Origin: Elusimicrobiota bacterium
GTDB taxonomy: Bacteria > Elusimicrobiota > Elusimicrobia > FEN-1173
Assembly: GCA_016721625.1 (NCBI GenBank)
Contig: JADKHR010000001.1
Location: forward strand, 1,967,225-2,031,224
Direction of reading: 5' to 3'
Length of the DNA: 64,000 bases
The notes under the pieces were generated by a model. It did not search any database. It saw nothing but the letters and a program-made list of their open reading frames with translations, and was not told the origin of the DNA. Made by a program: the position numbers and the translations under genes. This document shows, in pieces, positions 20,118 through 58,019 of the stretch; the stretch's first letter is position 1; the number at the start of each line of letters is the position of its first letter.

Positions 20118-21576
20118 ATGCTTTTCAATTCTTGGGAATTCCTTTTTTTCTTTCCTACGGTGACCGCTTTGTATTTCATCCTGCCCCATCGCTCTCGCTG
20201 GTTCCTGCTTTTGTTGGCGAGTTGTTATTTTTATATGTCTTTTATCCCGATATACATATTGATCCTTGGAGTGACGATCCTGGTGGACTATTACGCCGGC
20301 CAATTTATTGAAATGTCGTCGGGCCGAAAAAAGAAATATTTTCTTGCCGGCAGTATTGTCGCCAATGTGGGTTTCCTGGCTTTTTTCAAGTACTTCATTT
20401 TTCTTAATGACAATATGGCGTTGATAGCAAAGGCGATCCATTGGAATTACCCTATCCCTTCTTTAAATATCATTCTTCCCATCGGGTTATCATTCCATAC
20501 TTTTCAAGCCATGAGTTACACGATTGAAATCTATCGGGGCCGTCAAAAGGCGGAGAAGCACTTCGGCCTATTTGCTTTGTACGTGATGTTTTATCCGCAG
20601 TTGGTGGCCGGACCCATCGAACGTCCTCAAAATTTAATACATCAGTTTTCCGAGGAGCATGAATTTGAATACGGGAGAGTGTCCGACGGATTAAAATTAA
20701 TGGCGTGGGGTTTTTAAAAGGTCGTTGTGGCGGACAGGTTGGCGCTCCTCGTCAATCAAGTCTATGACAATCCCACGCGGTACACGGGTTTACCGTTGAT
20801 CATCGCCACCGTCTTTTTTTCCTTCCAAATCTATTGTGATTTTTCCGGATACTCCGATATCGCCATTGGATCGGCTCAAATCATGGGATTCAAATTAATG
20901 AAAAACTTTAACAGGCCGTATTTTTCGAAATCAATTGCCGAATTTTGGAAAAGATGGCATATTTCTTTGTCTTCGTGGTTCAGAGACTATTTTTATATTC
21001 CACTTGGGGGAAGCAGGGTTTCAAAAGGGAGATGGCAGTTTAATCTGCTCCTCACATTCTTGATAAGCGGGCTGTGGCATGGAGCCCATTGGACTTACGT
21101 TGCCTGGGGAGGCCTGAACGGGCTTTATTTCATTTTTTCAATTTGGACGGAAGGGATCCGGAAAAGAATCACTGTATTTGCGAACCTCCATAAGTTTCCC
21201 ATGGTTCAACAATGCGGGCAAATCGTTATAACTTATTCACTTATTTGTTTTTCTTGGATTTTTTTTCGAGCCAAAAATCTAAAAGAATCTTTCTATATTA
21301 TAAGTCATCTTTTTAAAGGGTCGAATCTATTTTTAAATTCAAAGCCGTCATCTCCGGCATCGGTGGGTTAGGATTCGGAAAGAAGGATTATTTAGCTGCC
21401 ATCGTTTCCATGGTCTTTTTAGAAACCGTGGAATACGTTCAACGAAAGGAAAGCCTTAGGCCATGGATTTCAAAACAACCCGCCTATGTGAGATGGGGAT
21501 TATATTATTTACTGGTTTTTTGGATTTGTTCATTCGGGGTTTTTAGGAAATCGCAATTTATCTATTTTCAATTCTA
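20118..21576 (+). CDS. MBOAT-family membrane O-acyltransferase (AlgI/DltB-like), interrupted by an in-frame TAA and a frame change
   Basis: MBOAT signatures SFHTFQAMSYTIEIYRG, FWKRWHISLSSWFRDYFYIPLGGSR, WHGAHW; same-frame ORFs 20118-20717 and 20727-21371 separated by TAA at 20715-20717 (…LKLMAWGF*KVVVADRLA…); C-terminus continues in another frame to ~21576. Confidence 0.75.
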
Positions 21577-21581
21577 AAACC

Positions 21582-22712
21582 ATGAAAAGAAATGTCGGGG
21601 CATTGTTAATTAAAATATTCATTTTGTCGGTTCCCATCGCCCTCCTCTTCTTCATCATGTGTTGGGCGATGTGGACTTCTGGCGAATTGATGTCGGTGAA
21701 GGATATCCTCAGAAATGAAACACCGGCGACTTTGTTCGGATTGGCATACTCGGACCCTAAAGAACGCTACAAATTAAATAAGCTGATAAAGAAAAACCCC
21801 GTGATCATCGCGCTGGGATCCTCCCGGGTTATGCAGTTTCGGGAGATCTTCTTCAAGCCGAGTTTTTATAATGCCGGGGGGTGTGCGGGGCGAATAAAAA
21901 ACTTTTCACAGTTTATGGCACATCTTCCAAACGAAATGAAATGCACGACGATGATCGTGGGTTTAGACCAAAACTTTTTCAATCCGAATTGGGACGACTT
22001 CGGACCAGATCACTTTTTGGATTTGCTGGAAAAGGAGAGATCCCGAGGGCCGCTCCTGGTTTCATCTTTTCAAAAGTTTTGGTTTGATTTTATGACCAAA
22101 GGGATTTCTCTCTCAAAAATAGCGAACAACAGGTGGAGCGAGGCCATTGGCTTGAACGCCATTGTTCAAAGCAACGGTTTCCAGGACGACGGCGGATATC
22201 AGAGGGGGCCACCGGCGAATAATTTAATAAGGGAGATCCCGAATTTTGCCGCGGAGCCAGGATCGGATGCTATTTTGAAAGAAGGAAGTCGATTAGCGGC
22301 GTTTAAAGGCATAAATGTTAACGCGATAAATGAACTCGATCGTTTTTTAGCGGCATGCAAAATGCGAAACATTCATGTCATTGCTTTTTTCCCTCCCTTT
22401 CCGGAAGATGTGTATGACAAATTGCTGGAACTAAAACCGGATTTTACCGGTTTTTTCCAATTGCCTAAACTCGTATCCCCGCATTTAAAAACGTTTGGAT
22501 TTGAGTTTTATGATTTCACAAATCCCAGAACGTTGGGAGCCCAAAACATGGAGTTTTGCGACAGTATTCATGGTTCCGACACGGTGTATTTGAGAATCGT
22601 TATTGGTATGGCCTTGAGGGGATCTTCCATAAACCAGAGCATCGATTTAAATTCCCTTGCCAAAATGCTTAACGATTCAAAAGGTGGAAAATCGGTATTC
22701 CCTTTAAAATAA
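21582..22712 (+). CDS. DltD/AlgJ-like SGNH-type acyltransferase partner of MBOAT, membrane-anchored
   Basis: 376-aa ORF with N-terminal signal anchor (…ILSVPIALLFFIMCWAMW…), GSS-containing segment …VIIALGSSRVMQF… and …CDSIHGSDTVYL…; directly downstream of MBOAT gene. Confidence 0.5.
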   Translation: MKRNVGALLIKIFILSVPIALLFFIMCWAMWTSGELMSVKDILRNETPATLFGLAYSDPKERYKLNKLIKKNPVIIALGSSRVMQFREIFFKPSFYNAGGCAGRIKNFSQFMAHLPNEMKCTTMIVGLDQNFFNPNWDDFGPDHFLDLLEKERSRGPLLVSSFQKFWFDFMTKGISLSKIANNRWSEAIGLNAIVQSNGFQDDGGYQRGPPANNLIREIPNFAAEPGSDAILKEGSRLAAFKGINVNAINELDRFLAACKMRNIHVIAFFPPFPEDVYDKLLELKPDFTGFFQLPKLVSPHLKTFGFEFYDFTNPRTLGAQNMEFCDSIHGSDTVYLRIVIGMALRGSSINQSIDLNSLAKMLNDSKGGKSVFPLK

Positions 22713-22771: not shown

Positions 22772-22831
22772 TATAATAGGGGTCGGTTTCCTTTGATGGA
22801 GGCTTTCGTCTTAGCGTAAGACGATTGACAT
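22772..22831 (+). promoter_or_regulatory. candidate promoter/5' leader element upstream of radical SAM gene
   Basis: TATAAT hexamer at 22772-22777 preceded by TG; perfect 19-bp palindrome tcgtcttagcgtaagacga at 22807-22825; TTGACA at 22826-22831; -35/-10 spacing not canonical. Confidence 0.25.
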
Positions 22832-22874
22832 GGCGGGGCCGAAGCCGGTCCGGCAGTAAAGGGACGCGCGCCAT

Positions 22875-23903
22875 ATGGAAAAGTCTTTTGTTCCCTTGGG
22901 GTGGTTGCCTCAAGAACACGTCGTCCAAATCAGCGCGGATTACGTCGAGGTTCTTGGCACCGATCGAATCGATAACGTGGAAAAACGTCTAGGTCCGTCG
23001 TATCAGGCGTACCGCGCGAACTGGACGTCACGGCCGCGATCGCAAATCGTGGGCGATTATCCCCTCCATTTGGATGTGGAATGCACGGCCGTTTGCAACC
23101 TTCGTTGCACCATGTGTCAAATCCCCTTTGATACGATGCCCTCCGGGTTGATTTCCCCAGGCCTCTTCAAGAAGATCATGGACGAAATTAAGCTGAGCAA
23201 AGCCGACCTTCCCTCCGTGAAATTTAATTTTCGCGGGGAACCCACCCTCCATCCTCAGATAGCGGAATTTGTCCGCTTGGCTCGGGAGTCGGGAATTATG
23301 GATGTCCAGTTCAACACGAACGGGACCATGCTGAACGAAAAACTTTCCAAGGACCTTATCTCCGCCGGTCTGGTGCGCATCAAATTTTCTTTGGACAGCA
23401 TGAATCCTTCCCTCTACAACAGCGTTCGGAAAGGCGCCGACTACAAAAAAACGTTAGGGCACATCCTTGATTTTTTGAGAATTCGAAATGAGCTTGGATC
23501 GGCTTTTCCTTCCGTGATGGTCCAAATGGTTTTCATGTCCATGAACCAAAATGAACTCATGGATTACATCCATTTCTGGCAGGACAAGGTCAACCGGATT
23601 GGGATTTCACGCTACCGCTCCGGCAACAATGAGTCCGGAGAGGACGCCCAGGTGAATGTTCCAGTGCAAACCGAACGGTTCCCTTGCCCCCAGCTATGGC
23701 AAAGGCTGGTCATCCTTTTTGACGGCACGGTGCTGATGTGTTGCGGAGATCACCACAGCAAAAATCCTATCGGGGATATCAAAACCCGTTCAATCCGTGA
23801 CATTTGGCACAGTCCGGAGCTCTCCGCCATGAGACGATTACATTCGGAACACCGGTATGATGAAATAGAGGCGTGCAAGGGTTGTCAAATCAACTGTCGT
23901 TGA
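22875..23903 (+). CDS. radical SAM protein with C-terminal SPASM/twitch-like Cys cluster
   Basis: CxxxCxxC motif in ...ECTAVCNLRCTMCQ...; C-terminal cysteine-rich region ...CPQLWQRLVILFDGTVLMCCGDHH...ACKGCQINC. Confidence 0.8.
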   Translation: MEKSFVPLGWLPQEHVVQISADYVEVLGTDRIDNVEKRLGPSYQAYRANWTSRPRSQIVGDYPLHLDVECTAVCNLRCTMCQIPFDTMPSGLISPGLFKKIMDEIKLSKADLPSVKFNFRGEPTLHPQIAEFVRLARESGIMDVQFNTNGTMLNEKLSKDLISAGLVRIKFSLDSMNPSLYNSVRKGADYKKTLGHILDFLRIRNELGSAFPSVMVQMVFMSMNQNELMDYIHFWQDKVNRIGISRYRSGNNESGEDAQVNVPVQTERFPCPQLWQRLVILFDGTVLMCCGDHHSKNPIGDIKTRSIRDIWHSPELSAMRRLHSEHRYDEIEACKGCQINCR

Positions 23904-23999
23904 CGGCGGGTTTTCGGGCGGAGAGAATGAGGAAAAGGTCGACGAAACATCGGTCGGGCCGGGGGTGGTGATTTGAAATTGGCGAACAGGTCGGGGGCG

Positions 24000-24572
24000 A
24001 TGAAAACGAAATACCTGGTTGGCCGGCGCGTTACGCTCGGGCTGATTTCGCTCCGGGCCGATTTGTCCCACTACGCGGATTGGGTCAATGACCGCGAAAC
24101 GACCCAATTTATGGCGGTCGGGCGGTTCCCCGTGACGCTCGGCGAATTGCGGGCCTACGTCCGCCAGTATGCCGTCGACAAAACTGGCCTCTTGCTGGGT
24201 ATTTTTCTAAATAAATCAAAACGACACATTGGAAATATCACGTTGAACGACATACAATGGAAGGATCGGCGCGCGGAGGTCGGCGTTCTCATCGGGGAGA
24301 AGCCGTTCCGCGGCAAAGGTTACGGCCGGGAGGCCATCGAGCTCATTGTCGAGCATGCGTTCGGGTGGCTTAATTTACACAAGTTGTCTTGCGGGATGGT
24401 CGAGGGCAATGAGGCCTCTCGCCGGGCATTTATGCGGATCGGTTTTAAGGAGGAAGGGTTTTTGCGCCGTCATGTTTTTGTGGACGGTTCCTACCTGGGT
24501 TGTTACCGCCTGGGTTTATTGCGGGAAGAGTATGCAAAAACATTGCAACCAAAATTGAAACGAAGGGAATAA
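24000..24572 (+). CDS. GNAT-family N-acetyltransferase
   Basis: ATG 24000 in frame of ORF 23973-24572; acetyl-CoA binding-like segment …RGKGYGREAIELIVEHAFGWLNLHKL…. Confidence 0.65.
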   Translation: MKTKYLVGRRVTLGLISLRADLSHYADWVNDRETTQFMAVGRFPVTLGELRAYVRQYAVDKTGLLLGIFLNKSKRHIGNITLNDIQWKDRRAEVGVLIGEKPFRGKGYGREAIELIVEHAFGWLNLHKLSCGMVEGNEASRRAFMRIGFKEEGFLRRHVFVDGSYLGCYRLGLLREEYAKTLQPKLKRRE

Positions 24573-24576
24573 AACC

Positions 24577-26502
24577 ATGCGGAAAATGTTTATTGCCACC
24601 GGTGACCGTCGGCTCGATTTGGGTGTTTCGCTTGAACCCGTTACGGCCTTGCGCGGCGGGTCGAATTTGGTCGCGAGTCTTAAAACGGCCGATCATACGA
24701 TTTCTATCTCGGCCACGAAGAAAGCCTACATTTGGGGGGATTTGTTTTATTTCATTAACCCGGACGGTTCCGTCCTCCCGATGAATTCAAAGGGGCGGAT
24801 CCAAAACATTTTCCGGAAACATTCCTATCGGGATATTCATCACTCGATGGAAGGCCAGTTCGTGTGCCTGCTCGCGGATTCCGAAAAGAGAAATGCCGTT
24901 ATTTTTTCCGATCGATACTCGCGCCAAGATTATTTTTACGCGGAAGAAAATAATCAATTCTACCTCAGTTCCGATCTGGATTTGTTGTTCACGTTCATTC
25001 AACCGCGCTACGACCAGAAAATGATCGCCCACATGTTTTCGGTGTATGGGTGGTATGTCCCCAAGCCGCGAACCATGTATGTGGGAGTGAACCGTTTGGC
25101 CGTTGGAGAAATTAAACATTTGGACGGGGAGATTTCAACGGAACAGGTCGAATTCAAACCTCTGCCCATCCAAGATTACACTCAAAACCACCTGGCCACG
25201 TACGAGAGTTATTTGCGGAATTCCATCAGAACCCGGGCCAACCAAAAAGGGACCACATGGGTGTCCAGTTCAAGCGGTTGGGATTCGTCCAGCTTGGTCG
25301 GCCTGTTGGCGGATGAGTTCGGTTCTGGAAAAGTCAGGATGGTCACCGGCAGTATGCTGTACTCGAAGGCGACCCATGTCATCAATTCTTTTGAAATCGA
25401 GAAGATAAAGAAAATCGGCAAATTTTTTGGAATCCGCCCCGATATTGTTCCTTTCGATTTCAAAAACCGGGCCATCGTGGATTACTGGAAGAAGGTGCTT
25501 CCATTTTATAAATCGCGTCATGTCTACACGATCGTCACCCACAATTACTCCCGCTTGTCCGAACGGCTGACGGAGTCGAACGGAGGGTCGGAAGTGGTTT
25601 TCAATGGAGAGACCTCGGATTCTTTTCACAATTTCGGGTTTTCTCAATTTGTGACATTTTTTCATACCGTCAAATCATTCACCGAATACGCCGATAAAAT
25701 GAATTGCTATCTTTTCGGACCGACTTTCTTTAAGAAAGTCCTTGATGATTCATACCTGAGCGACAAAGTGTTCCAGATTTTTCAACGAATGAAACCCGAG
25801 GTCAAGTGGGCGGGGGCGGGGGCCTCCAAGGCGGAAAAGATGCGCGCCTATTTATCTCCGTTATTCCACGGCTCAACGAGGATTCCCTTTGCGAGAATCC
25901 CCGCCAATCCGGCCCTGAAACCGTCTGTTGAGGCCCAATCCGTCCATTACATGTTTGAGTGTTTTCGGAATTTGGAATCGATGACCCCGGAAACAATGTA
26001 TTCGTGGATAATTTATCTCTACCACAGCATGCATTCCCAGGGCTCCACGGTCAATGTTCAAAAACACGCCATGGCCATGAACGGCCACGGGTGGAGATCT
26101 CCTTTTAATGATTTACGATTAATCCAACTGCTTTCACAGGCTCCCGAGTCTTGGGGACGGGGCCTCGATCTCCATCACACAAAGTATCCGCTGAAATGGT
26201 TGTTGAAAAACCGTCTTAAATTTCCGTATGAATTGCTTGAAACGGGTCCCCATTCCTATCTCTATGACGTTCTCGAGGGATTTTCTTTGACCGAGGAGAT
26301 CGTCTACCGATCGGGAGTGAGTGAATTTTTCCGTCAAACCCTCCATTCAAAGCCGTATCGAGGGTTATTGGATGATCGCACCTTCAATGTCAAATACCTG
26401 GACTCCATTGCGGATGCGTATCTGCAAAAAAAGGAGACGAAAGGCCAAGATTTCAACAATCTTGTCAGTCTGATCACTTTGTGCATGACCGGGTGGTATT
26501 GA
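24577..26502 (+). CDS. asparagine synthetase-like PP-loop ATP pyrophosphatase lacking N-terminal Cys nucleophile (possible sugar amidotransferase)
   Basis: 641-aa ORF; PP-loop-like segment ...TTWVSSSSGWDSSSLVGLL...; N-terminus MRKMFIATGD has no Cys2. Confidence 0.55.
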   Translation: MRKMFIATGDRRLDLGVSLEPVTALRGGSNLVASLKTADHTISISATKKAYIWGDLFYFINPDGSVLPMNSKGRIQNIFRKHSYRDIHHSMEGQFVCLLADSEKRNAVIFSDRYSRQDYFYAEENNQFYLSSDLDLLFTFIQPRYDQKMIAHMFSVYGWYVPKPRTMYVGVNRLAVGEIKHLDGEISTEQVEFKPLPIQDYTQNHLATYESYLRNSIRTRANQKGTTWVSSSSGWDSSSLVGLLADEFGSGKVRMVTGSMLYSKATHVINSFEIEKIKKIGKFFGIRPDIVPFDFKNRAIVDYWKKVLPFYKSRHVYTIVTHNYSRLSERLTESNGGSEVVFNGETSDSFHNFGFSQFVTFFHTVKSFTEYADKMNCYLFGPTFFKKVLDDSYLSDKVFQIFQRMKPEVKWAGAGASKAEKMRAYLSPLFHGSTRIPFARIPANPALKPSVEAQSVHYMFECFRNLESMTPETMYSWIIYLYHSMHSQGSTVNVQKHAMAMNGHGWRSPFNDLRLIQLLSQAPESWGRGLDLHHTKYPLKWLLKNRLKFPYELLETGPHSYLYDVLEGFSLTEEIVYRSGVSEFFRQTLHSKPYRGLLDDRTFNVKYLDSIADAYLQKKETKGQDFNNLVSLITLCMTGWY

Positions 26503-26550: not shown

Positions 26551-28053
26551 ATGGCCGGCATGGAAGTTGAAAAGAAGTTAATAACGAACTCGTTTTTCTA
26601 TGTTTTGCCGAAATTTGCCGGAATCGGCATTAACATAATGACGCTACCGATATTAACGAGGATTTTGAGCCCCCAGGATTTCGGGGCCGTGGCCATGGCC
26701 ACGGTGTTTTCAACCTTTGCCGTGGGGATTTTTTCATGGGGTTTGCCGATCGCGGTCCAGCGGTATTTTTTCGAATACCGAAGAGACCCCGTTCGGCTGG
26801 GTCGATATCTTTTCACGTGCCAATTTTTTCTGCACTTGGTCCTGCTCGTTTCTTCCGCGCCCATCTATATTTTCAGGAACGCCTTTTCAACGTTGTTCAT
26901 AGGAAACCCAGGGTACGGAAACGCATTTTTTACGTTTTACGTATCGACTTTTTTCTTCTTCATCCTCAACGTGTACTTAACGACGTTACAGAACTTTGAA
27001 AATGCGAAAGTCCATTCGTTTTTCACGATATTCCATGCCGTTGTTTTAGGCGGTCTCAATGTGACGTTAAGTTTTTCGTTTAAAGATTACACCGGCTTGA
27101 TGTACGCTTCAATCGCAAGTTCTTTTGGGGTCTCCGCCCTATGCACGTTATATTTTTTTAAATATTTTCGAAACGTTTTAAGTTTTGAAATGCTCAAAGA
27201 AAGTCTGGTTTACGGGGCCCAAAACATTCCGAAATCATTCACCGGTTTCATAGGGAGGTTTTTTGACAAGTACCTGATCAACAAAGTCCTCACGTTGCAG
27301 GCCGTGGGTGTTTATAACATCGGGCAGTCGCTTGGGAATTCATCGATTTCTTTATTAAACACCATATGGTCCTCTTTTCAACCCTTGTGTTATCGACAGG
27401 TGTTTGATCAGGGACCGAAGGCGAGCCGGCCCGTTGGACGATTGTTCTCCTATTTTCTCTTCGCCACCGCGAGCCCGTTGCTTCTTGTTCTATTGTTTTC
27501 TTCCGAAATCGTCCGTCTCCTGGCTCCCCCGGCCTACCAGCCCGCGGTGGACGTGATTATGATTTTTCTTTGCGCCATGTCGACGAACATATTTGGAATG
27601 TACGTAGGGGTTCAGTATGCCTACGCGAAAAAGCCGCTGTATATTGTTCTCGCCACAACGATGGGAACATTGGTCAATGTCGGCATGAATTTGTTGTTGA
27701 TTCCACGCTGGGGTTTGGTGGGGGCTTCTTTGGGGGCGTTGGTTTCCTACGCGACCATCAACGGACTGCTGACCGTTATTGGTCAGTCTCTTTATCGAAT
27801 ACATTACGAATGGGGGTTTGTGGCGTGCGTCTATGGAATCATCGGGCTCAGCACCTTGGCAGGCCTTCTAATGCGCGCCACGCAAATATCCTATGGCGTT
27901 CAACTCTGCCTTAAGATTTGCTTATTTGGTGCCTTGATCTTCGCGGGTTCCCGTTGGAAGGTCGCGACGATGGATACGGCACGAAAGATCGTCCGGTTGT
28001 TAAAACCTCAAAAGGGGCTCAGTCCGGAATTTCGCCCCGTCTCGCCTCATTAG
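26551..28053 (+). CDS. Wzx-type oligosaccharide flippase (polysaccharide biosynthesis protein, MOP superfamily)
   Basis: 500-aa very hydrophobic multi-pass membrane protein typical of Wzx/polysaccharide transporter family. Confidence 0.7.
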   Translation: MAGMEVEKKLITNSFFYVLPKFAGIGINIMTLPILTRILSPQDFGAVAMATVFSTFAVGIFSWGLPIAVQRYFFEYRRDPVRLGRYLFTCQFFLHLVLLVSSAPIYIFRNAFSTLFIGNPGYGNAFFTFYVSTFFFFILNVYLTTLQNFENAKVHSFFTIFHAVVLGGLNVTLSFSFKDYTGLMYASIASSFGVSALCTLYFFKYFRNVLSFEMLKESLVYGAQNIPKSFTGFIGRFFDKYLINKVLTLQAVGVYNIGQSLGNSSISLLNTIWSSFQPLCYRQVFDQGPKASRPVGRLFSYFLFATASPLLLVLLFSSEIVRLLAPPAYQPAVDVIMIFLCAMSTNIFGMYVGVQYAYAKKPLYIVLATTMGTLVNVGMNLLLIPRWGLVGASLGALVSYATINGLLTVIGQSLYRIHYEWGFVACVYGIIGLSTLAGLLMRATQISYGVQLCLKICLFGALIFAGSRWKVATMDTARKIVRLLKPQKGLSPEFRPVSPH

Positions 28054-28073
28054 ATGGAATAGGGAGAATCCCA

Positions 28074-29077
28074 TTGGGTCGTCAAAAATTTCAATTTCCG
28101 CTCCTCATCGCAGAGGTTGCCAATTCACACGGGGGTTCTCGTCCGTATCTTTTCCAACTGACCAAGAGGCTGCTGGCTACGAGCGTCCCTGCCGTTAAAT
28201 TTCAATGCATCGTGGCGGATGATTTTTTGACCCCCGCTCACCCCCAATACGAGCTATTCAAGTCCTTTGAATTTCCGCCGACCGTATTTTCCACGCTGGT
28301 GCGGCTCATCCATGGGGCAAGGAAAAAGGCGTATTTTGACGTTTTCGGCGACATCTCGTTGGCGGCGGCGGATCGGGTCGGCGCCGACGGTTTTAAAATC
28401 TATGCCAGCGACATCGGCAATAATCCTTTCATTGAAAAGGTCCTCTCGATCGGAAAGCCGGTCTTGATCTCAGTGGGGGAGCGACGCTGAGCGAAATCGA
28501 CGAGATTGTTAAAATATGTTCGGGAAAACAGTTCTGTCTCTTGGTGGGGTTTCAAGCGTTCCCTACTCCGATCGAGGAATCCAACGTGGGGAAAATTAAA
28601 TTCCTAAGAGAACGATACGGTTGTTCCGTCGGATACATGGATCATTCTCCGGCCATTGACCCTTTCTCGGAATTTGTCCCTTGTTTGGCGGTTGGGCAAG
28701 GGGCCTGTTGCATCGAAAAACACGCGTATCTTAAAGCCAGGAAGACCTTGTATGATTGGCAATCGGCGTTCGACCCCTCCCAGTTTGAAACGCTCGCTCA
28801 CCGCCTTAAGAAGGCTCAGTCCGCGTTGGGGACAACGTTCTTTCCCCTTTCTTCTTCTGAACAGGCTTACTCCCGCTCAAAGCGGAAAATCATTGTCGCG
28901 GCCGATCCGATCGACCAAGGAGTTCGGATCCTCCCCAAGAACATCATGGGCCGATGCGCCCATCTTTCTTCGAGGACCTCGTTTTTCACACTCAACCAGT
29001 CCGGCCACGTGGTCGGTCGAGTGGCTCGAAAAAATATCCAACGGTTCGAGGTGATCTCGCCGGACATTTTAAGATGA
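28074..29077 (+). CDS. NeuB-family nonulosonate/ulosonate synthase paralog 1 (one frame change)
   Basis: TTG 28074 after AGGGAGA RBS; N-terminal ...PLLIAEVANSHGGS...AVKFQ...; continues after a frame change at ~28470 (ISVG / GGATLSEIDEIVKICSGKQFCLLVGFQAFPTP...MDHS...IEKH...). Confidence 0.7.
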
Positions 29078-29811
29078 AAGAGATTATTGGGTTGGTCGCC
29101 GTGCGCATGGCTTCCAGGCGGCTCCCAAAAAAGGCTTTTCGGACCATCGCTGGAAAACCGATTCTTCGAATCCTCGTGGACCGGTTACGAACATCGGGAC
29201 TCGATGATTTTGTGGTTTGCACCACCACCGCGGACGAGGACAAAGAGATAGAATCATGGTGTTCCTCCAACGGGGTCCGCTGTTTTCGCGGTGATTCGGA
29301 CAATGTGCTGAGGCGGTTTGTCCGCTGTGTCTCGACAAACCCCGCCGCGTATATCGTCCGAATTACGGGAGACAATCCTTTTACCGATTTTCTGTCCATG
29401 CGGGAGATGTTCGTCGAGATGAAACAAAACAAGGCCGATTACGCCCGGCAGGTGGGTGTGCCCCTGGGGGCCGCCTGTGAAATCGTTCGGACCTCCGCCC
29501 TGGAAGAGCTTCACCGGCGCGCCCGCACGCCCGAACTAAGCGAGTTCATGACCTACTTTTTCGAGCTCGCTCCTTTTATACGGAAGCAGTTCTTCCATGT
29601 GCCGGAAAATATTCGGATGCCGCAATTGCGGCTGACCATCGATTATGAATCGGATGTCCAATTCGCGAACGCTCTCGTCGATCATTTTCATGGTCGGATT
29701 CCCTCGTTGGAGGAAATTGTTTCCCACTGCGTTCAACGGTCGGATTATCCGCTCGTGAAAGAAGATGCGGCGGCTTCGGATGAAATTAAAAAGAAGATAC
29801 TCATTGATTAA
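29074..29811 (+). CDS. cytidylyltransferase (CTP_transf_3 / SpsF-PseF-like CMP-sugar synthetase)
   Basis: ATG overlaps previous stop (ATGA); MKEIIGLVAVRMASRRLPKKAFRTIAGKPIL... and ...RITGDNPF... motifs. Confidence 0.7.
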   Translation: MKEIIGLVAVRMASRRLPKKAFRTIAGKPILRILVDRLRTSGLDDFVVCTTTADEDKEIESWCSSNGVRCFRGDSDNVLRRFVRCVSTNPAAYIVRITGDNPFTDFLSMREMFVEMKQNKADYARQVGVPLGAACEIVRTSALEELHRRARTPELSEFMTYFFELAPFIRKQFFHVPENIRMPQLRLTIDYESDVQFANALVDHFHGRIPSLEEIVSHCVQRSDYPLVKEDAAASDEIKKKILID

Positions 29812-29823
29812 TGGGGGAGCCTG

Positions 29824-30881
29824 ATGGGTGGAATTCGGTTCCAACACGGCGCCGCTATCGGCGACGGGGTTCACTGTTTCATCATGCTCGACGCGGGGGT
29901 CAATCACAACAACGATGTCGGGCGAGCCAAAGAACTTATTCGATCCGCCAAGGCCGGAGGCGCGGACGCTATTAAATTCCAGACCTACAGTGCGGAGGAG
30001 ATCAGCACGAAAAAAGCCGCTCGGTATTGGGATCCGAAACTGGACACGGACGGGGGGGGGACCCAATTCGAAATGTTCGCGCGGGTGGATGACTTGCCGA
30101 AAAAGCGTATTTTGGACTCAAAGAGTATGCCCAGGAACAAGGGATCCTTTTTTCTTCATCCCCTTTCGGCATGGACAGCGCCCGATTTTTGAAGAAACTG
30201 GGGGTCGATTTCTTTAAGATCGCCTCAGCGGAGATTACAAACTTGCACCTGATTGAATTCATCGCCGACTGCGGAAAGCCGATTGTTCTGTCGACGGGGG
30301 CGGCCTCCATTGGGGAAGTGGAGAAAGCCATTGACGTCATTCACCGGACAGGCCTTCGAGAGATCGCGCTTCAGCATTGCGTGCTGAGTTATCCGTGCAA
30401 GGATGATGACGCGAATCTGGCCAAAATGGTCCGGTTGAAGCAGATTTTTCCGGACATCCCCATCGGGTATTCCGACCATACCTTTGGGGCGGAAGTGCCG
30501 TTGGCTGCGGTGGCGTTGGGGGCGCGTTCGATTGAAAAGCATTACACCTTGGACAGCCGTCTCCCCGACAGTCCCGATCATAAATTCGCCCTGACGAGCG
30601 ACGAACTGGGGGATTTCGTAAAACGTTGTCGGAGGGTGGAAAAATCAATCGGCACCTACCGGAGCGGACATTACGCGGCGGAGGAGAAAGCCTATCAACT
30701 CGCACGCAAGAGCCTGGTGGCCGTCCGTCGAATTAAGAAGGGCGAAAGGATCACGGATCGAGCCGTTTCCTGCAAGCGGCCCGGGACCGGCATTTACCCC
30801 GAGTTTTTGGGGGTCATCGTGGGGAGAACGGCCAAAAAAAACATCGAACCGGACGAGCTACTCTCGTGGGACATGTTTTAG
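29824..30881 (+). CDS. NeuB-family nonulosonate/ulosonate synthase paralog 2 (one frame change)
   Basis: N-terminal ...CFIMLDAGVNHNNDVGRAKELIRSAKAGGADAIKFQTY...; frame change at ~30101 (A5 run; one more A gives ...LPKKAYFGLKEYAQEQGILFFSSPFGMDS...); middle ...GKPIVLSTGAASIGEVEKAIDVI...GYSDHT...IEKHYTLD... Confidence 0.7.
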
Positions 30882-30982
30882 AAGGATCCTCATGGGCTTT
30901 GGGTTCTCTCGTTCCGGCGGGATGGGTCGTTCGCGGCGTTTAAAATATTCAACGAATTCTAACGTTGCCTTTTGGAGCCAAA

Positions 30983-31978
30983 ATGAAAAACATGTTTGAG
31001 GGGAAAACCGTTTTGGTCACGGGGGGGACGGGATCTTTCGGGAAGATGTTTACGTCGATTTTCCTGAAGCGGTTTCGCCCCGAGAAACTGATTATCTTCA
31101 GTCGGGACGAGTACAAACAATCTGAAATGGCAAAAACGTTTCCCATCGAGAAGTTTCCCGTGAGGTATTTCATCGGAGACGTCCGGGATCACGACCGGTT
31201 ATTCCGCGCGTTCGATGGGGTGGATTATGTCGTGCATGCGGCGGCGCTTAAGCAAGTGCCGGCTCTTGAATACAATCCCACCGAGGCGGTGAAGACCAAC
31301 GTCACCGGGGCGGACAACATCGTCGAAGCGGCCGTGGATCGAGGGGTAAAAAAGGTGATCGCTCTCTCCACCGACAAGGCCGTCAACCCCATCAATCTTT
31401 ACGGGGCGACGAAACTTGTGGCGGAAAAGATTTTCGTCGCCGCCAACGCATACACCGGGAATAAGACCAAATTCTCGGTGGTGCGTTACGGGAACGTCGT
31501 CGGTTCCCGGGGAAGCGTTATTCCCTTGTTTGCCGATCTTAAGAAACGGGGCGTGAAGGAGTTCCCCATCACCGATGAGAAAATGACTCGATTTTGGATC
31601 GGTTTGGGGGCAGGGGTTGACCTCGTTTTGCGTGCGCTCGAAGAGGCCGAAGGCGGCGAACTTTTTGTGCCCCGCATCCCCTCCATGAGGATAACCGACT
31701 TGGCGCGGGCTGTGGATCCGGAGTGCACGTTTAAGAAGTTGGGCATACGTCCAGGGGAAAAACTGCATGAAACCCTCATTTCCGAAGACGAGGCGCGAAG
31801 CACAAAACAAGTCGGTGATTTCTACGTCGTTTTGCCGCAGTTCATGATCAGCGCCGCCCTCGATTCAAAATATGATCCGTTCGAATTCGTGAAAAATGTT
31901 TTTTCCTACCGGAGCGATACCAACGATCGGTGGCTCGATATCGCGTCTTTAACCGCGATGATTTCGCAGAATGAATAG
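30983..31978 (+). CDS. pseB: UDP-N-acetylglucosamine 4,6-dehydratase (inverting), PseB/FlaA1-type SDR
   Basis: MKNMFEGKTVLVTGGTGSFGK... N-terminus, YGATK catalytic motif, ~330 aa; followed by DegT aminotransferase. Confidence 0.8.
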   Translation: MKNMFEGKTVLVTGGTGSFGKMFTSIFLKRFRPEKLIIFSRDEYKQSEMAKTFPIEKFPVRYFIGDVRDHDRLFRAFDGVDYVVHAAALKQVPALEYNPTEAVKTNVTGADNIVEAAVDRGVKKVIALSTDKAVNPINLYGATKLVAEKIFVAANAYTGNKTKFSVVRYGNVVGSRGSVIPLFADLKKRGVKEFPITDEKMTRFWIGLGAGVDLVLRALEEAEGGELFVPRIPSMRITDLARAVDPECTFKKLGIRPGEKLHETLISEDEARSTKQVGDFYVVLPQFMISAALDSKYDPFEFVKNVFSYRSDTNDRWLDIASLTAMISQNE

Positions 31979-31990
31979 GGCCCTCTTTCC

Positions 31991-33133
31991 TTGATCCCTT
32001 ACGGAAAGCAATCGGTCACCCGTGCGGATGTGCAGGCGGTGGCCTCCGCCCTTCGTTCGGACTGGCTGACCCAGGGTCCTCGGGTGGGCGATTTTGAAAA
32101 AGCGTTGTGCCGCTACACCGGAGCGCGCCACGCCGTGGCGGTTTCAAGCGGCACCGCCGCGTTGCATCTCGCGATGCTTTCTCTGGGGGTCGGTCCCGGG
32201 GAAACCATCCTCACTTCCCCCATCACTTTTGCGGCGAGCGCCAACTGCGCGTGTTATGTCGGGGCGCGACCGCATTTTATCGATATTGACCCTAAAACCT
32301 ACCAGATGAGCGCGGAACGCCTGGAGGAGTATCTCCGGGTTGAATCTCGCAGGAGAAAAGTGCGAGTCATTATCCCTGTGCATTTTATGGGGACGGTTCC
32401 GGACGTCCGGGCGTATTCCCAAATCGGCGCGCGCTACGGCATTCCCGTTGTGGAAGATGCGGCACACGCTCTGGGGGCGGCCTATGAGCACAAAGGAGCC
32501 CAGGTTCGCGTTGGTTCTGGCTTTCATGCCGATGTGAGTATTTTAAGTTTCCATCCCATAAAACATATTACAACCGGTGAAGGCGGGGCCCTGCTCACCA
32601 ACAATAAGCGCATCTACGAACGGGCGCGTCGTATGAGGCATCATGGGATTACAAAGGACCCTTCTCGGCCGCGATGGTTTTACGATATCCCTGAGCTGGG
32701 TTACAACTATCGCCTAACGGATTTCCAGTGTGCGTTGGGGTTGTCTCAGTTGTCCCGCATTGAACAATTCCGCAAAGCGCGGTACGCGCTTGTTCAGAAA
32801 TATAATTCGGCGTTCAAAAGGATTCCGGAAATAATTCTCCCATTTGAAAGACCAGGGACAACCCCCTCTTATCATTTGTACGTCATTCAGGTCCCGCCCA
32901 AAAAGCGCCAGGCGTTGTACGACCATCTTTTTGGAAAGGGAATTGGAACGCAGGTCAACTATATCCCCGTTCACCTGTTTTCGTTTTACAAAAGACAATT
33001 CGGATATCGTCTTGGAGATTATCCGAACGCCGAGAGGTACTACCAGCGATGTTTAAGTCTGCCTTTGTTTCCTGGATTATCCTCTTCGGAACAGGAATAT
33101 ATCATCAAACAGGTCCAAGGATTTTTTCGATGA
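31991..33133 (+). CDS. pseC: DegT/DnrJ/EryC1/StrS-family sugar aminotransferase (PseC-like)
   Basis: 380-aa ORF with PLP-dependent sugar aminotransferase features (…AVSSGTAALHLAM…, …SFHPIKHITTGEGGAL…); immediately downstream of pseB. Confidence 0.7.
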   Translation: MIPYGKQSVTRADVQAVASALRSDWLTQGPRVGDFEKALCRYTGARHAVAVSSGTAALHLAMLSLGVGPGETILTSPITFAASANCACYVGARPHFIDIDPKTYQMSAERLEEYLRVESRRRKVRVIIPVHFMGTVPDVRAYSQIGARYGIPVVEDAAHALGAAYEHKGAQVRVGSGFHADVSILSFHPIKHITTGEGGALLTNNKRIYERARRMRHHGITKDPSRPRWFYDIPELGYNYRLTDFQCALGLSQLSRIEQFRKARYALVQKYNSAFKRIPEIILPFERPGTTPSYHLYVIQVPPKKRQALYDHLFGKGIGTQVNYIPVHLFSFYKRQFGYRLGDYPNAERYYQRCLSLPLFPGLSSSEQEYIIKQVQGFFR

Positions 33134-33137
33134 CGCG

Positions 33138-34016
33138 ATGTTGAACGCCGACAGGATCTGCCTCGGTACGGTCCAATTGGGTCTACCTTACGGGATCGCC
33201 AACCGGGGAGGACAACCCGACCTCCCCGCCGCTTTCTCGATCCTTGACGCCGCGCATCAAAGCGGGATCTCCCTGCTGGACACCAGCCGCGCCTACGGAA
33301 CCAGCGAGGAGGTCATTGGGTCCTTCGCCGAAAAGATGGGGAGGTCTTTCCAGGTCATTTCGAAATTGCCGCCCCATCCGAATTGTTCTCGTCTGAGCGT
33401 CTCGGGGTTTCTGAAGGAATCGTTAACCCGGTTGCGGGCCCCCTTTCTTCAAGGATACCTCATTCACGATTTCAAAACGTATCGCGACCACCCGGAAGTT
33501 TGGGATTTCCTGTTGGGACTGAAAAACGACCATCTGGTTAAACAAGTCGGTTTTTCCGTCTATTTCCCCAGAGAGGTTGAACTCTTTCTGGCGCAGGGGA
33601 TTTGCCCGGATATTGTCCAAATTCCGTTCAGTGTTTTGGATACCCGATTTGCGCCGCTCCTTTCGGAGTTGAAACAAAGGTCCGTGGAAGTTCACGCCCG
33701 ATCGGTCTTTTTGCAGGGCGCTGTATTCCTCCCGGAGGAGAAGCTGACGGGGGCTCTCCAAAAGGCGGCGGCCTCGATTCGAAGACTCCGTGAACTGTCT
33801 TCACAGACGGGGGTCCCGGTGCTCGATCTTTGCCTGCGGTTCGTGGTGGCGCACGAAACCATTGATCGGATCGTCCTGGGGGTCGATTCGGCGGCTCATT
33901 TGCGGACCAACGTCGCGGCGCTCGGAAACCCTTTTGAAGATTCCGCTCTATCGGCAGAATTACGACAACTGGCTGTGAATGAGGAGAAGGTCGTGGTTCC
34001 CTCCCTCTGGACCTGA
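33138..34016 (+). CDS. aldo/keto reductase family oxidoreductase
   Basis: 292-aa ORF; ...LGTVQLGLPYG... and ...LLDTSRAYGTSEEVIG... typical of AKR family. Confidence 0.7.
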   Translation: MLNADRICLGTVQLGLPYGIANRGGQPDLPAAFSILDAAHQSGISLLDTSRAYGTSEEVIGSFAEKMGRSFQVISKLPPHPNCSRLSVSGFLKESLTRLRAPFLQGYLIHDFKTYRDHPEVWDFLLGLKNDHLVKQVGFSVYFPREVELFLAQGICPDIVQIPFSVLDTRFAPLLSELKQRSVEVHARSVFLQGAVFLPEEKLTGALQKAAASIRRLRELSSQTGVPVLDLCLRFVVAHETIDRIVLGVDSAAHLRTNVAALGNPFEDSALSAELRQLAVNEEKVVVPSLWT

Positions 34017-34029
34017 TACAATTCGTCCC

Positions 34030-34803
34030 GTGAATACGGTCGCGATCGTCCAAGCCAGGATGTGTTCCACCCGTTTGCCGGGAAAAGTCTTATTGTCCTT
34101 GGGAGGAAAAAAGGTCTTGGAGCACGTGGTGGGAAGAATCCGCCGTGCCCGATTGGTCCGCGACGTGGTCGTCGCCACCACGATCCAGGAGGAGGATTTG
34201 GAGATCGTCAGGTTTTGCGCCGAAAACAAGATCCGCGTTTATGTGGGTTCGGAACAGGACGTTCTCGATCGTTACTATCAGGCGGCCCGGTTGTTCCACG
34301 TCGACCACGTGGTGAGAATCACGGCGGATTGTCCTGTTATCGACCCCCGCATTATCAATCGGGTGATCGCCCGCCATTTGGCCAGCCGCTCCGACCTGAC
34401 CGCCAACATACTTCGAGAAACCTTTCCCGACGGCCAGGATGTCGAGGTGTTCACTTTTTCGGCCTTATCGCGAGCATGGAAGGAGGCCAAGTTGGCCTCT
34501 CAGCGGGAGCACGTGACTCCCTACCTGAAGGACCATCCGACCCTCTTCAAGCTGACCAATGTCGCGTGCAGGGAAAACCTCGGAAAAATGAGATGGACTC
34601 TTGATAACAAGGAAGACTTTTTATTCTTGAAACATATTTTCAACGCTCTTTACGACAAAAAGAAAATATTCGGAATGGAGGATATACTCCGTTACTTGAG
34701 AACACATCCCGAAGTGGAAAAGATCAACGGACTCCTTGAGCGAAACGAGGGTTATAAGAAATCCCTCCGGCAAGACCGTCCGGTGGGAACGGAATGGCGA
34801 TAA
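34030..34803 (+). CDS. cytidylyltransferase (CTP_transf_3 family), second copy
   Basis: GTG 34030; ...NTVAIVQARMCSTRLPGKVL... and ...RITADCPVIDP... motifs. Confidence 0.7.
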   Translation: MNTVAIVQARMCSTRLPGKVLLSLGGKKVLEHVVGRIRRARLVRDVVVATTIQEEDLEIVRFCAENKIRVYVGSEQDVLDRYYQAARLFHVDHVVRITADCPVIDPRIINRVIARHLASRSDLTANILRETFPDGQDVEVFTFSALSRAWKEAKLASQREHVTPYLKDHPTLFKLTNVACRENLGKMRWTLDNKEDFLFLKHIFNALYDKKKIFGMEDILRYLRTHPEVEKINGLLERNEGYKKSLRQDRPVGTEWR

Positions 34804-42793: not shown

Positions 42794-44321
42794 AGCCTTC
42801 CCCGCCTCCTTTGGCGGTTCGAGCGGATGCTGGGCCCGCCATGGGGACTGGGCATATGATGCGTTGTATCGCGCTGGGGCAGGCTTGGCGCGCTTTGGGA
42901 GGCCGGGTCGTTTTTCTAACGGCGAACAGCCTTCCCTCTCTTTTGTCTCGAATACCTGGAGGGATTTCGTCATTCCCCTTTTGACGGTTCGAGCCGGCGG
43001 CCGGTCGGACGCTGTCAAAACGGCGGACGCGGCGCGGAGGTTCGGGGCTCGCTGGGTCGTGGTCGATGGATATCATTTCGGGCCCGGCTATCGAGAGATT
43101 TTGCAAAAAAGCGGATTTCGCGTTTTGTGGGTTGACGATCTCGGCAGTTCCGAGAATTGTTTTTCAGACATTGTTGTGAATCAAAACCTTCACGCCAAGC
43201 CGAACCTTTATCCTCGCCGTGAGGCCCGCCCCCGGTTGATGTTAGGGTCCCGCTACGCGTTGTTGCGAAACGAGTTCTCCGCTTTCCAGCGGCGATCCGC
43301 TCGGCATTCAACAGTGAAACGAATATTGGTTTCGGGCGGGGGAACCGATCCTAAAAACATAACGAGAACCGTTCTGAAGGCCTTGGCGAATGTTCCGGCT
43401 CCTCGGTTTGAGATCGACGTCCTTCTTGGCGGAGGGTATCGTAAGGCGTGGTCCCTCGCCGGATGGGCACGCCGGGCGGGTGTTCATCGGGTTCACGTTC
43501 ACAAAAACCCAAGAAATATCGCTTTTCTGATGTCTCGTGCCGACCTGGGAATCCTGGCGGCCGGATCCACTTGTTTGGAAATCGCTCGATTGGGGCTTCC
43601 GGCTATTCTCGTGGCCCAATCTGACAACCAAACCAACATCGCCCATTCAATGCATCAAGAGGGTGCCGCCTGGAGCCTGGGGTCCATCGCTTCCTTGTCG
43701 GTAGGGGAAATCCGGGATCGAGTCGAATGGTTGGCGCGATCGCCATCGGTTCGTAAACGAATGTCTCTAAGAGGAAAACGGCTCGTTGATGGAAAAGGGG
43801 CCAAGCGCGTGGTGGCCATGATGCAGGACATGGCTTCGCCAAGGGTTCCCTTTGTTCTTCGACGCGTCCGTCCCTCCGACTGTCGAAGGTTGTGGAATTG
43901 GGCGAACGACCCGGCCGCCCGCGCGGCAAGTTTTTCTGAAACCCGTATTCCATGGGGGCCCCACCAGGCCTGGTTTAAGGAACGACTTAATAATTCCCAT
44001 TGTGTTATTTTCGTTGCCGTTCTTCGACAGGGGAAATCCATTGGAAGTGCGCGTTTTGAACGCCGAAAGATCGGTTGGGTGATTTCCGTTTTTGTCGAGA
44101 GGACCTATCGTGGGCAAGGGCTTGGATCCAGTCTCATCCGAACGGCGGCATGCGCGTTCATGAGGGACACCGGAGAAAAGGTTGTGAACGCTTATGTGAA
44201 GCCCACCAACGGCGCTTCTCTCCAAGCTTTCCTTCGAGCGGGGTTTCGTCAAAGGGCGAAAACGCGCATTTCAAACACTCCGGCCTATTGGTGTGTGTTA
44301 ACCACGGAAGATTGTCAATGA
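42784..44321 (+). CDS. pseG: bifunctional PseG-like UDP-sugar hydrolase / PseH-like GNAT acetyltransferase (one frame change)
   Basis: N-terminus ...LAVRADAGPAMGTGHMMRCIALGQAW... (PseG-like) in frame 1, continuing after a frame change at ~42950 in frame 0 (...WVVVDGYHFGPGYREILQKSGFRVLWVDDL...); C-terminal GNAT domain ...FVERTYRGQGLGSSLIRTAACAF... Confidence 0.65.
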
Positions 44322-57939: not shown

Positions 57940-58011
57940 TCCCCGGTAGCTCAATGGTGGAGCGGTCGGCTGTTAACCGACAGGATGTTGGTTCGAGTCC
58001 AACCCGGGGAG
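57940..58011 (+). tRNA. tRNA-Asn (anticodon GTT)
   Basis: Cloverleaf folded by hand: acceptor TCCCCGG/CCGGGGA, D-arm GCTC/GAGC, anticodon stem GTCGG/CCGAC with loop CTGTTAA (anticodon GTT), T-arm GTTGG/TTCGAGT/CCAAC; CCA not encoded. Confidence 0.85.
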
Positions 58012-58019
58012 CTTTTGGT

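Follow-up and report, generated by a model that had tools for sequence, protein, structure and literature searches.

A gene at positions 22875-23903 (+) of the window, by which we mean the whole 64,000-nucleotide stretch of contig JADKHR010000001.1 from an Elusimicrobiota bacterium, encodes a radical S-adenosylmethionine (SAM) protein that in all probability tailors a sugar of an ulosonic-acid pathway and is not a maturase of peptides, proteins or cofactors. Our preferred reading, to which we give slightly less than an even chance, is more specific: the protein would be a radical SAM enzyme with two clusters, of BtrN/Twitch type, that modifies a sialic acid-like sugar, i.e. a nonulosonic or another 2-keto-3-deoxy ulosonic acid, in a surface-glycan pathway, most likely as a dehydrogenase. 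This reading is built on the observed domain architecture, cysteine pattern, closest relative, conserved synteny and gene fusions. An initial sequence-only reading of this DNA had proposed an uncharacterised radical sugar-tailoring step, and the co-occurrence and fusion with the NeuB and CTP_transf_3 families described below support this proposal; the reaction itself we infer.

The open reading frame (ORF) is intact, starts with ATG and encodes 342 amino acids. ORF, translation and Pfam analysis agree exactly with the initial description of a 342-aa protein carrying the motif CNLRCTMC. The Pfam model Radical_SAM (PF04055) matches residues 69-227 with 63.6 bits (cutoff 29.5), and the model SPASM (PF13186) matches residues 271-338 over its whole length with 56.4 bits (cutoff 21.5). 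An identical protein, named 'radical SAM protein', is deposited at NCBI from a 2.76-Mb contig of an Elusimicrobia metagenome-assembled genome (MAG), and an ortholog with 82 % identity, likewise 342 aa in length, is present in a second Elusimicrobia MAG. Thus, the gene is real and intact. The cysteines of the CNLRCTMC motif are C74, C78 and C81, and the codons for these putative ligands of the SAM-binding [4Fe-4S] cluster (C74-x3-C78-x2-C81) are located at 23094-23117 (+). Membership in the radical SAM superfamily is indicated by the CX3CX2C motif, which is invariant in 42 family members, by the conserved R-G121-E122-P123 motif and by the radical SAM fold of an AlphaFold2 model computed from the alignment (pLDDT 94.9, pTM 0.92).

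The C-terminal domain determines the class of the enzyme. Two alignments were employed, one of 42 homologs with 27-82 % identity to the protein and a closer one of 17 sequences. Besides the three cysteines of the SAM cluster, exactly four are invariant among the 42 homologs, namely C271, C289, C334 and C337 with the spacing C-x17-C-x44-C-x2-C. The domain of the protein itself holds six cysteines, including a C-x2-C-x3-C arrangement at the extreme C-terminus; C290 and C341 vary across the 42 homologs, C290 being invariant only in the closest 17 sequences. Hence, despite the match to the Pfam model, the protein lacks the seven-cysteine SPASM motif (CX9-15GX4C ... CX2CX5CX3C ... C) that binds two auxiliary [4Fe-4S] clusters, and only one auxiliary cluster is possible, since four invariant cysteines, or the six present here, are too few for a second one. 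As judged from the alignment, the C-terminal domain (residues 271-341, 23685-23897 (+)) is a BtrN-type Twitch domain with a single predicted Cys4 auxiliary cluster, and not a full SPASM domain. The initial designation as a cysteine-rich SPASM/twitch-like region therefore stands with respect to the Twitch-like character and the Pfam match, but not as a seven-cysteine SPASM domain.

In line with this pattern, BtrN ranked first in a profile search of all sequences in the PDB (E 2.4e-31, 112 bits), followed by glycerol dialkyl glycerol tetraether synthase (72 bits), MoaA (67 bits), SkfB (66 bits), BlsE (55 bits), anSME (46 bits) and DesII (46 bits). Likewise, a Foldseek comparison of the model with the PDB returned BtrN in complex with AdoMet and substrate as the top match (E 3.6e-15, TM score 0.73 normalised to BtrN, approximately 20 % identity). 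BtrN, the 2-deoxy-scyllo-inosamine dehydrogenase of butirosin biosynthesis (PDB 4M7T/4M7S), is the founding Twitch radical SAM enzyme and acts on a small carbohydrate-like substrate. Both proteins combine the CX3CX2C motif with the four cysteines of one Cys4 auxiliary cluster, predicted in the protein studied here: C169, C187, C232 and C235 of BtrN align one-to-one with C271, C289, C334 and C337 at identical spacing, and the alignment extends residue by residue over the whole Twitch domain. The auxiliary cluster of BtrN is ligated by four cysteines, and electron transfer has been proposed as its role (PMC10337720). The protein differs from BtrN in an additional N-terminal segment of approximately 60 residues and in a longer radical SAM core (342 aa versus about 250 aa in total). 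The N-terminal extension (22875-23054 (+)) is predicted to form a hairpin and two helices, contains the conserved residues G28-T29-D30, Y46, R47 and W50, is absent from BtrN and is possibly a substrate-binding element. Moreover, the gene lies among NeuB, CTP_transf_3 and pseudaminic acid (Pse)-type glycan genes and not among aminoglycoside genes. The protein is not a BtrN ortholog, and its substrate is almost certainly a different one.

None of the curated NCBIfam subfamily models reached its cutoff with this protein, and hence no known maturase subfamily emerged from the classification that had been suggested as a check. The best matches were TIGR04317, which had the top E-value (111 bits, cutoff 380), and TIGR04321 (94.1 bits, cutoff 250). 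TIGR04317, TIGR04311 and the MoaA models span the radical SAM core only, and the model N_Twi_rSAM (NF033640) scored 66.8 bits against a cutoff of 170. The only curated model that aligns over both the core and the C-terminal domain is TIGR04321, which describes spiro-SPASM, an uncharacterised fusion of a cytidylyltransferase with a radical SAM/SPASM protein; our literature search on spiro-SPASM returned no paper describing it. Profile positions 222-502 of 510 align to the protein, and the N-terminal half of the profile matches the window's own CTP_transf_3 gene. TIGR04321 thus pairs a CMP-transferase with the same kind of radical SAM protein, whereas the protein studied here is unfused, lacks an N-terminal CTP_transf domain and has a separate CTP_transf_3 gene approximately 5 kb downstream. 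The protein is not an anSME either: anSME models are absent among the best 25 of 45 NCBIfam matches, and anSME scored 46 bits versus 112 bits for BtrN in the PDB search. With the SPASM maturases anSME, PqqE, SuiB, CteB and SkfB it has in common the radical SAM core and, of the C-terminal iron-sulfur domain, the first half, but it lacks the cysteines for a second cluster, a recognition element (RRE) of ribosomally synthesised and post-translationally modified peptide (RiPP) systems, a precursor peptide and RiPP-type neighbours.

The absence of a plausible precursor peptide upstream, remarked upon in the sequence-only reading, was confirmed. The 162-nt gap 5' of the gene contains no free-standing ORF of at least 20 aa on the + strand, and the sole candidate, a 55-aa ORF with a TTG start (22825-22992), overlaps the start of the radical SAM gene out of frame. 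The Pfam scan of the protein revealed no PqqD/RRE domain, and no protease, ABC exporter or sulfatase gene is annotated by Pfam or NCBIfam beside it in the window; a sulfatase is likewise missing from the annotated island (13-49 kb). Accordingly, neither a precursor peptide with RiPP-type neighbours nor an assignment to a known maturase family was found when both were looked for.

Strong evidence for a function in sugar biosynthesis comes from the association of the gene with NeuB and cytidylyltransferase genes across genomes. A scan with the alignment of 17 sequences retrieved 80 loci from genomes representing GTDB species, and these loci were searched with hidden Markov models (HMMs) derived from annotated NeuB and cytidylyltransferase genes. 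With a threshold of at least 245 bits against the HMM of the 17 sequences, 27 of the 80 radical SAM proteins were assigned to the subfamily and 53 served as outgroup. A same-strand NeuB gene is located within 10 kb in 18 of the 27 subfamily loci, in 12 of them within 150 nt, and CTP_transf_3 is present in 20. Among the 18 loci with at least 3 kb of sequence on both sides, 14 contain NeuB. None of the 53 outgroup loci (Acidobacteriota/Vicinamibacteria paralogs, approximately 160 bits) does so; the linkage is thus specific to the subfamily and not a general property of radical SAM/SPASM genes. The subfamily is represented in the bacterial lineages Elusimicrobia, Margulisbacteria, Saganbacteria, WOR-1, Clostridia, Actinomycetota, Parcubacteria, Omnitrophota, Acidobacteriota, Pirellulales, Geobacter and Chromatiales, and in archaea of the Aenigmarchaeota, Woesearchaeota, Hadarchaeota, Nanobdellati and Methanosarcinales. 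We therefore define a NeuB-linked Twitch radical SAM subfamily by a score of at least 245 bits to this HMM together with a same-strand cluster with NeuB and/or CTP_transf_3; the protein of the window, with 554 bits, belongs to it. When 1.84 billion representatives of 50 % identity clusters were searched exhaustively with HMMER, 980 matched at E<=1e-30, which is an upper bound for the size of the subfamily.

On one contig each from Margulisbacteria and an Actinomycetota MAG, and on two metagenome contigs without assignment (40-55 % identity), a NeuB paralog, a CTP_transf_3 gene and a NeuB+SAF gene follow the radical SAM gene. The junction between the radical SAM and NeuB genes is immediate, with a 4-nt overlap in some of these loci, and in one locus the next gene encodes a NeuB-SAF-CTP_transf_3 fusion. 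The radical SAM-adjacent paralog is divergent, scoring 120 bits with the Pfam NeuB model versus 264 bits for the canonical copy. It is probably an active synthase, since the ortholog in locus L004 retains the catalytic motifs AE..N.HGG, GY.DH and EKH of the solved NeuB/PseI proteins. Fusions among the best 150 matches of the exhaustive search point in the same direction: P0216 (703 aa) combines full-length NeuB and SAF domains with the radical SAM and SPASM domains, and P0139 joins CTP_transf_3 to radical SAM and SPASM; in addition, P0174 carries a D-2-hydroxyacid dehydrogenase and P0136 an FkbM methyltransferase fused to the radical SAM domain. As P0139 belongs to the family of our protein and is not a member of TIGR04321, fusion of a cytidylyltransferase with a radical SAM protein arose more than once, independently.

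The locus of the 82 % ortholog has the gene order CTP_transf_3 - radical SAM - GNAT - AsnB-like - 592-aa protein - flippase - NeuB - CTP_transf_3 - NeuB+SAF - another radical SAM. Here, HMGL-like and cytidylyltransferase genes replace the MBOAT and 'DltD-like' genes that precede the radical SAM gene in the window; the upstream genes of the window are thus not conserved partners. It is NeuB and the cytidylyltransferase that are conserved as partners, not MBOAT or the 'DltD-like' gene. CTP_transf_3 lies directly upstream of the radical SAM gene in L001, L090 and L091. Unbiased ORF clustering of 30 loci identified the NeuB/cytidylyltransferase group (27), 4,6-dehydratase-type short-chain dehydrogenases/reductases (SDR; 22) and DegT (10) as recurrent partners, in addition to methyltransferases, B12-radical SAM proteins and transferase-like proteins of approximately 600 aa, including Glyphos_transf/Epimerase_2/Capsule_synth-like ones. 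Distant members (31-37 % identity) likewise have CTP_transf_3 as immediate upstream neighbour (L090, L091) or close by; the remaining genes around them encode NeuB, in some cases together with a HAD phosphatase, as well as 2-hydroxyacid dehydrogenases, aminotransferases and transferases similar to Capsule_synth. In L092, a PseB-like - DegT - aldo-keto reductase (AKR) - (SDR) - CTP_transf_3 block directly follows the radical SAM gene, a block type also found in the window. An Aminotran_1_2 gene is located directly downstream of the radical SAM gene in L090, and on a plasmid of Smac51, a cultured deltaproteobacterium, a DegT 'perosamine synthetase' gene overlaps the stop codon of a radical SAM homolog with 33 % identity, followed by AsnB and a methyltransferase gene. 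In butirosin biosynthesis, the keto product of BtrN is transaminated, which parallels these radical SAM-DegT pairs in the relatives.

Further genes recur in these neighbourhoods. Genes for a D-2-hydroxyacid dehydrogenase and a PF04199 'cyclase' are found by the CTP_transf_3-radical SAM pairs of L090 and L091, which, with the fusion in P0174, suggests the 2-hydroxyacid dehydrogenase as a further conserved partner. Large proteins of 500-690 aa with no or faint Pfam matches are encoded beside the radical SAM-NeuB module in many loci (L004, 4413-8011; L005, 6170-7987; L006, 6499-8004; L008, 13600-15663; window, 14983-17068), and their archaeal counterparts show similarity to Glyphos_transf, Epimerase_2 and Capsule_synth; these proteins are probably CMP-ulosonic-acid transferases. 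More distant relatives (26-28 % identity) are encoded at six places on NC_012226.1, a 36-kb plasmid of Brachyspira hyodysenteriae WA1, and on Lawsonia intracellularis plasmids; another match to the family lies on a Rhizobium plasmid whose record is without annotation.

In the window, the gene is part of an island of low GC content that extends from approximately 14 to 50 kb (42-55 % GC versus approximately 62 % in the flanks). The glycan biosynthesis context recognised from sequence is borne out, with a family 4 glycosyltransferase (GT4), MBOAT, Wzx, three NeuB-family genes, two CTP_transf_3 genes, PseB and PseC. The island also comprises two methyltransferases, the AsnB-like amidotransferase, GT2 glycosyltransferases, a LegB-like dehydratase and a B12-radical SAM gene. 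The scores of PseB and PseC exceed the respective equivalog cutoffs, and the PseG part of a PseG+GNAT fusion falls just under its own (139 versus 153.55 bits). Downstream of the radical SAM gene and on the same strand follow a GNAT N-acetyltransferase with weak similarity to PseH (23973-24572; Acetyltransf_3, 83.9 bits), which is directly downstream in the 82 % ortholog too, a divergent asparagine synthase-like amidotransferase of 641 aa (24577-26502), which is kept after the GNAT gene in that ortholog, and a Wzx-type polysaccharide flippase recognised by Pfam and conserved in L001 (26551-28053). These genes are followed by the divergent NeuB paralog of the type found immediately behind the radical SAM gene in most relatives (27915-29077), a CTP_transf_3 cytidylyltransferase, i.e. 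a predicted CMP-ulosonic acid synthetase (28954-29811, true start probably near 29080), a NeuB_NnaB-like NeuB+SAF synthase (29812-30881), and PseB, PseC, an AKR and the second CTP_transf_3 (30965-34803, profile matches). Both NeuB genes of this group are split by frameshifts, the latter with a homopolymer-rich region at 30093-30189. The NeuB paralogs are located 4.0-6.2 kb and CTP_transf_3 5 kb downstream of the radical SAM gene.

The gene was initially placed between a DltD-like gene and a GNAT gene; the GNAT assignment held, whereas the 'DltD-like' gene (21582-22712 (+)) has no Pfam match at E<=10 and none in NCBIfam or among PDB sequences. It encodes a membrane-anchored protein of 376 aa with an N-terminal membrane helix and, by eye, SGNH-like LGSSRV and DSIH motifs, and is preceded by a DltB-like MBOAT gene with an in-frame stop (20118-21371 (+)). 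The two may form an O-acylation pair similar to DltB/DltD or AlgI/AlgJ. A second radical SAM gene at 36800-39013 (+) encodes a 737-aa protein with a B12-binding domain that resembles the C-methyltransferase KedN5 (139.9 bits, below cutoff). Such B12-radical SAM genes are also found in L005, L012, L017, L018, L022, L031, L034, L090 and a JGI locus with a Twitch radical SAM gene, and their recurrence beside the Twitch radical SAM genes hints at C-methylated sugars in these glycans. The island follows an M4 (thermolysin-like) peptidase gene in both Elusimicrobia genomes (window; L001/L008). Its gene content varies, with MBOAT and GT4 in the window versus HMGL-like, an extra cytidylyltransferase and an additional radical SAM gene in the relative, as is typical of hypervariable loci for surface glycans. 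A single tRNA-Asn (GTT) gene is located at 57940-58012 (+), approximately 8 kb past the island. Around the radical SAM gene, scans for promoters and terminators revealed no clear excess (7 promoter-like sites versus 3.6 +/- 2.0 in shuffled sequences; 6 terminator-like sites versus 5.2 +/- 2.6), and Rfam gave no match.

Many genes of the island are interrupted. Frameshifts affect all three NeuB-family genes, including the third at 44060-45414 (zone 44938-45030), and the gene of approximately 660 aa at 14983-17068 (zone 16411-16441); the MBOAT gene contains an in-frame TAA at 20715-20717, and the M4 peptidase gene (13163-13957) is devoid of its N-terminal domain. Every frameshift zone contains homopolymer runs of at least five bases, and the conserved NeuB motif SVGGATLSE reappears when the G5 run at 28475 is lengthened by one G. 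For both reasons, the frameshifts likely reflect homopolymer errors of long-read sequencing and not decay.

The enzyme is encoded between, or shortly after, the synthase and the CMP-activating enzyme of an ulosonic-acid pathway and shares the design of BtrN with one auxiliary cluster; the most economical mechanism would be the following. The C74/C78/C81 cluster would reductively cleave SAM, and the resulting 5'-deoxyadenosyl radical would abstract hydrogen at a carbinol carbon of the substrate ulosonic acid, which might be the free acid released by NeuB or, more likely, the CMP form provided by the adjacent cytidylyltransferase. The substrate radical would then be oxidised by electron transfer to the C271/C289/C334/C337 cluster, yielding a keto-sugar as in the BtrN reaction. 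The ketone could subsequently be transaminated and N-acylated by the downstream GNAT and AsnB-like proteins and by DegT or other aminotransferases, which are present in the island and adjacent in L088, L090 and L092; alternatively, it could be reduced with inversion by an AKR or SDR. Finally, a TagF/Capsule_synth-like transferase would transfer the sugar onto a lipid-linked glycan, which Wzx would then flip.

The dehydrogenase mechanism taken by itself is tentative, and a number of points weigh against the reading as a whole. Substrate, site of attack and dehydrogenase outcome we infer from homology and context only; identity to BtrN amounts to approximately 20 %, and the N-terminal extension has no counterpart there. 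Twitch enzymes are known to catalyse epimerisation, C-C and C-S bond formation and substrate ligation, so that the fold does not fix the reaction. Nine of the 27 subfamily loci are without NeuB in reach, although five of these nine contigs end within 3 kb. Neither in the window nor in the closest ortholog is the radical SAM gene adjacent to NeuB; it sits 4-6 kb upstream. Any glycan island of this kind commonly holds aminotransferases and acetyltransferases, so that their proximity is weak evidence, and if the frameshifts in all three NeuB genes were real, the pathway would be decaying in this organism.

Among the alternatives, we consider it unlikely, but worth weighing as the main rival, that the protein is a radical SAM epimerase of a (CMP-)nonulosonic acid in which a cysteine or tyrosine of the protein donates the hydrogen, giving a 4-epi- or 8-epi-type stereoisomer without the need for NAD or O2. 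Its Twitch architecture, the same as that of BtrN, would be compatible with this activity: carbohydrate epimerisation with a cysteine as hydrogen donor is carried out by HygY, a Twitch enzyme, and by NeoN, an aminoglycoside enzyme, a single cysteine mutation converts HygY to a dehydrogenase, and nonulosonic acids exist in numerous stereoisomeric forms, not all of whose routes have been established. C290, which neighbours the ligand C289 and is invariant in the 17 close sequences, would be a candidate donor, and Y46 is nearly invariant. However, no non-ligand cysteine is invariant in the family of 42, C290 being replaced in many members, HygY and NeoN are not among the sequence or fold matches in the PDB, and the repeated adjacency to aminotransferases fits a keto product better. 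Other radical chemistry on the sugar acid appears distinctly improbable; this could be dehydration or deamination (as by DesII and AprD4), decarboxylation (as by BlsE), or formation of a carbonyl or radical for the NeuB paralog, which might then condense phosphoenolpyruvate (PEP) onto it to give an unusual, possibly longer-chain ulosonic acid. DesII, BlsE and viperin, in which a 5'-deoxyadenosyl radical abstracts hydrogen from a sugar or nucleotide-sugar, are indeed among the fold and sequence matches, and BlsE decarboxylates cytosylglucuronic acid. Moreover, the radical SAM gene is translationally coupled to a distinct NeuB paralog with catalytic His motifs while a canonical NeuB+SAF is also present, and islands with the module carry complete Pse- or legionaminic acid (Leg)-type gene sets as well, so that the product of the module would seem to be a further acid, distinct from these. 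On the other hand, these enzymes score below BtrN, BlsE and DesII by far (55 and 46 versus 112 bits), the fully Cys-ligated auxiliary cluster is the BtrN arrangement with a proposed role in electron transfer (PMC10337720), and L021, L026-L029 and L032 contain one NeuB only, which shows that a two-synthase scheme is not general. It would be a bold conjecture that the radical SAM protein, the coupled NeuB paralog and a dedicated cytidylyltransferase together make an undescribed class of CMP-ulosonic acid, for example one with an extra keto-derived amino or acylamino group installed without oxygen or NAD, or a chain-extended one in which a radical SAM-made carbonyl accepts a second PEP condensation.

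Readings outside sugar metabolism fare worse. That a peptide or protein maturase, be it a SPASM enzyme of RiPP type or a formylglycine generator resembling anSME, lies by chance inside a glycan island is very improbable. It would account for the Pfam SPASM match, for weak partial matches to the ScmE/F, WgkB, PqqE and mycofactocin models, and for the presence of SuiB, anSME and CteB among the fold matches, but all maturase models remain far under their cutoffs, most covering the radical SAM core only, and the linkage and fusion to NeuB/CTP_transf_3 are conserved across phyla and in both prokaryotic domains. Assignment as a full SPASM/RiPP maturase was dropped on the cysteine count, which allows a single auxiliary cluster, and on the lack of a PqqD/RRE domain and of a precursor ORF in the 162-nt gap. 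Hardly credible is a role in cofactor biosynthesis, either MoaA-like or as maturase of a tungsten-cofactor oxidoreductase. The top E-value of TIGR04317, matches to several MoaA models and the annotation of a homolog with 33 % identity as 'molybdenum cofactor biosynthesis protein' would speak for it. This assignment was dropped as well, because the matches are confined to the core (approximately residues 66-246) and reach only 59-111 bits versus cutoffs of 231-380; in addition, MoaA scored 67 versus 112 bits for BtrN in the PDB search, and the examined neighbourhoods contain no genes for molybdenum cofactor synthesis or tungstoenzymes.

Taken together, the data argue for a sugar-tailoring radical SAM enzyme of the BtrN type, most likely a dehydrogenase, that is tied to NeuB. 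The co-occurrence with NeuB genes in other genomes, which had been put forward as a check, was positive. Radical SAM tailoring of sugars is established chemistry, with HygY, NeoN and AprD4 acting on sugars or nucleotide-sugars. The known biosynthesis of nonulosonic acids uses enzymes dependent on NAD, pyridoxal phosphate and acyl-CoA. Our full-text literature searches found no paper linking radical SAM/SPASM proteins to NeuB or to nonulosonic, pseudaminic or legionaminic acid biosynthesis, nor a report of a DesII-, BlsE-, viperin-, HygY-, NeoN- or AprD4-type enzyme acting on nonulosonic or ulosonic acids or encoded in NeuB/CMP-synthetase operons. A BtrN-like subfamily dedicated to CMP-ulosonic-acid pathways appears to be undescribed.

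Nonulosonic acids, i.e. sialic, pseudaminic and legionaminic acids and their derivatives, shape the recognition of microbial surfaces by hosts and phages. The present analysis ties a sizeable subfamily of radical SAM proteins, comprising at most approximately 980 representative clusters from mostly uncultured bacteria and archaea, to NeuB and CMP-sugar synthetases, and CMP-sugar substrates with which the hypothesis can be tested directly are available. If the reaction were elucidated, the repertoire of nonulosonic acids would gain a tailoring step that needs no oxygen, and probably a new sugar as well; curators would obtain a functional handle for 'radical SAM/SPASM protein' annotations in glycan loci, and the short list of Twitch enzymes whose small-molecule substrate is known would grow. 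Should the conjecture of an undescribed CMP-ulosonic acid hold true, this sugar would be a widespread building block of the surface glycans of uncultured anaerobic bacteria and DPANN archaea.

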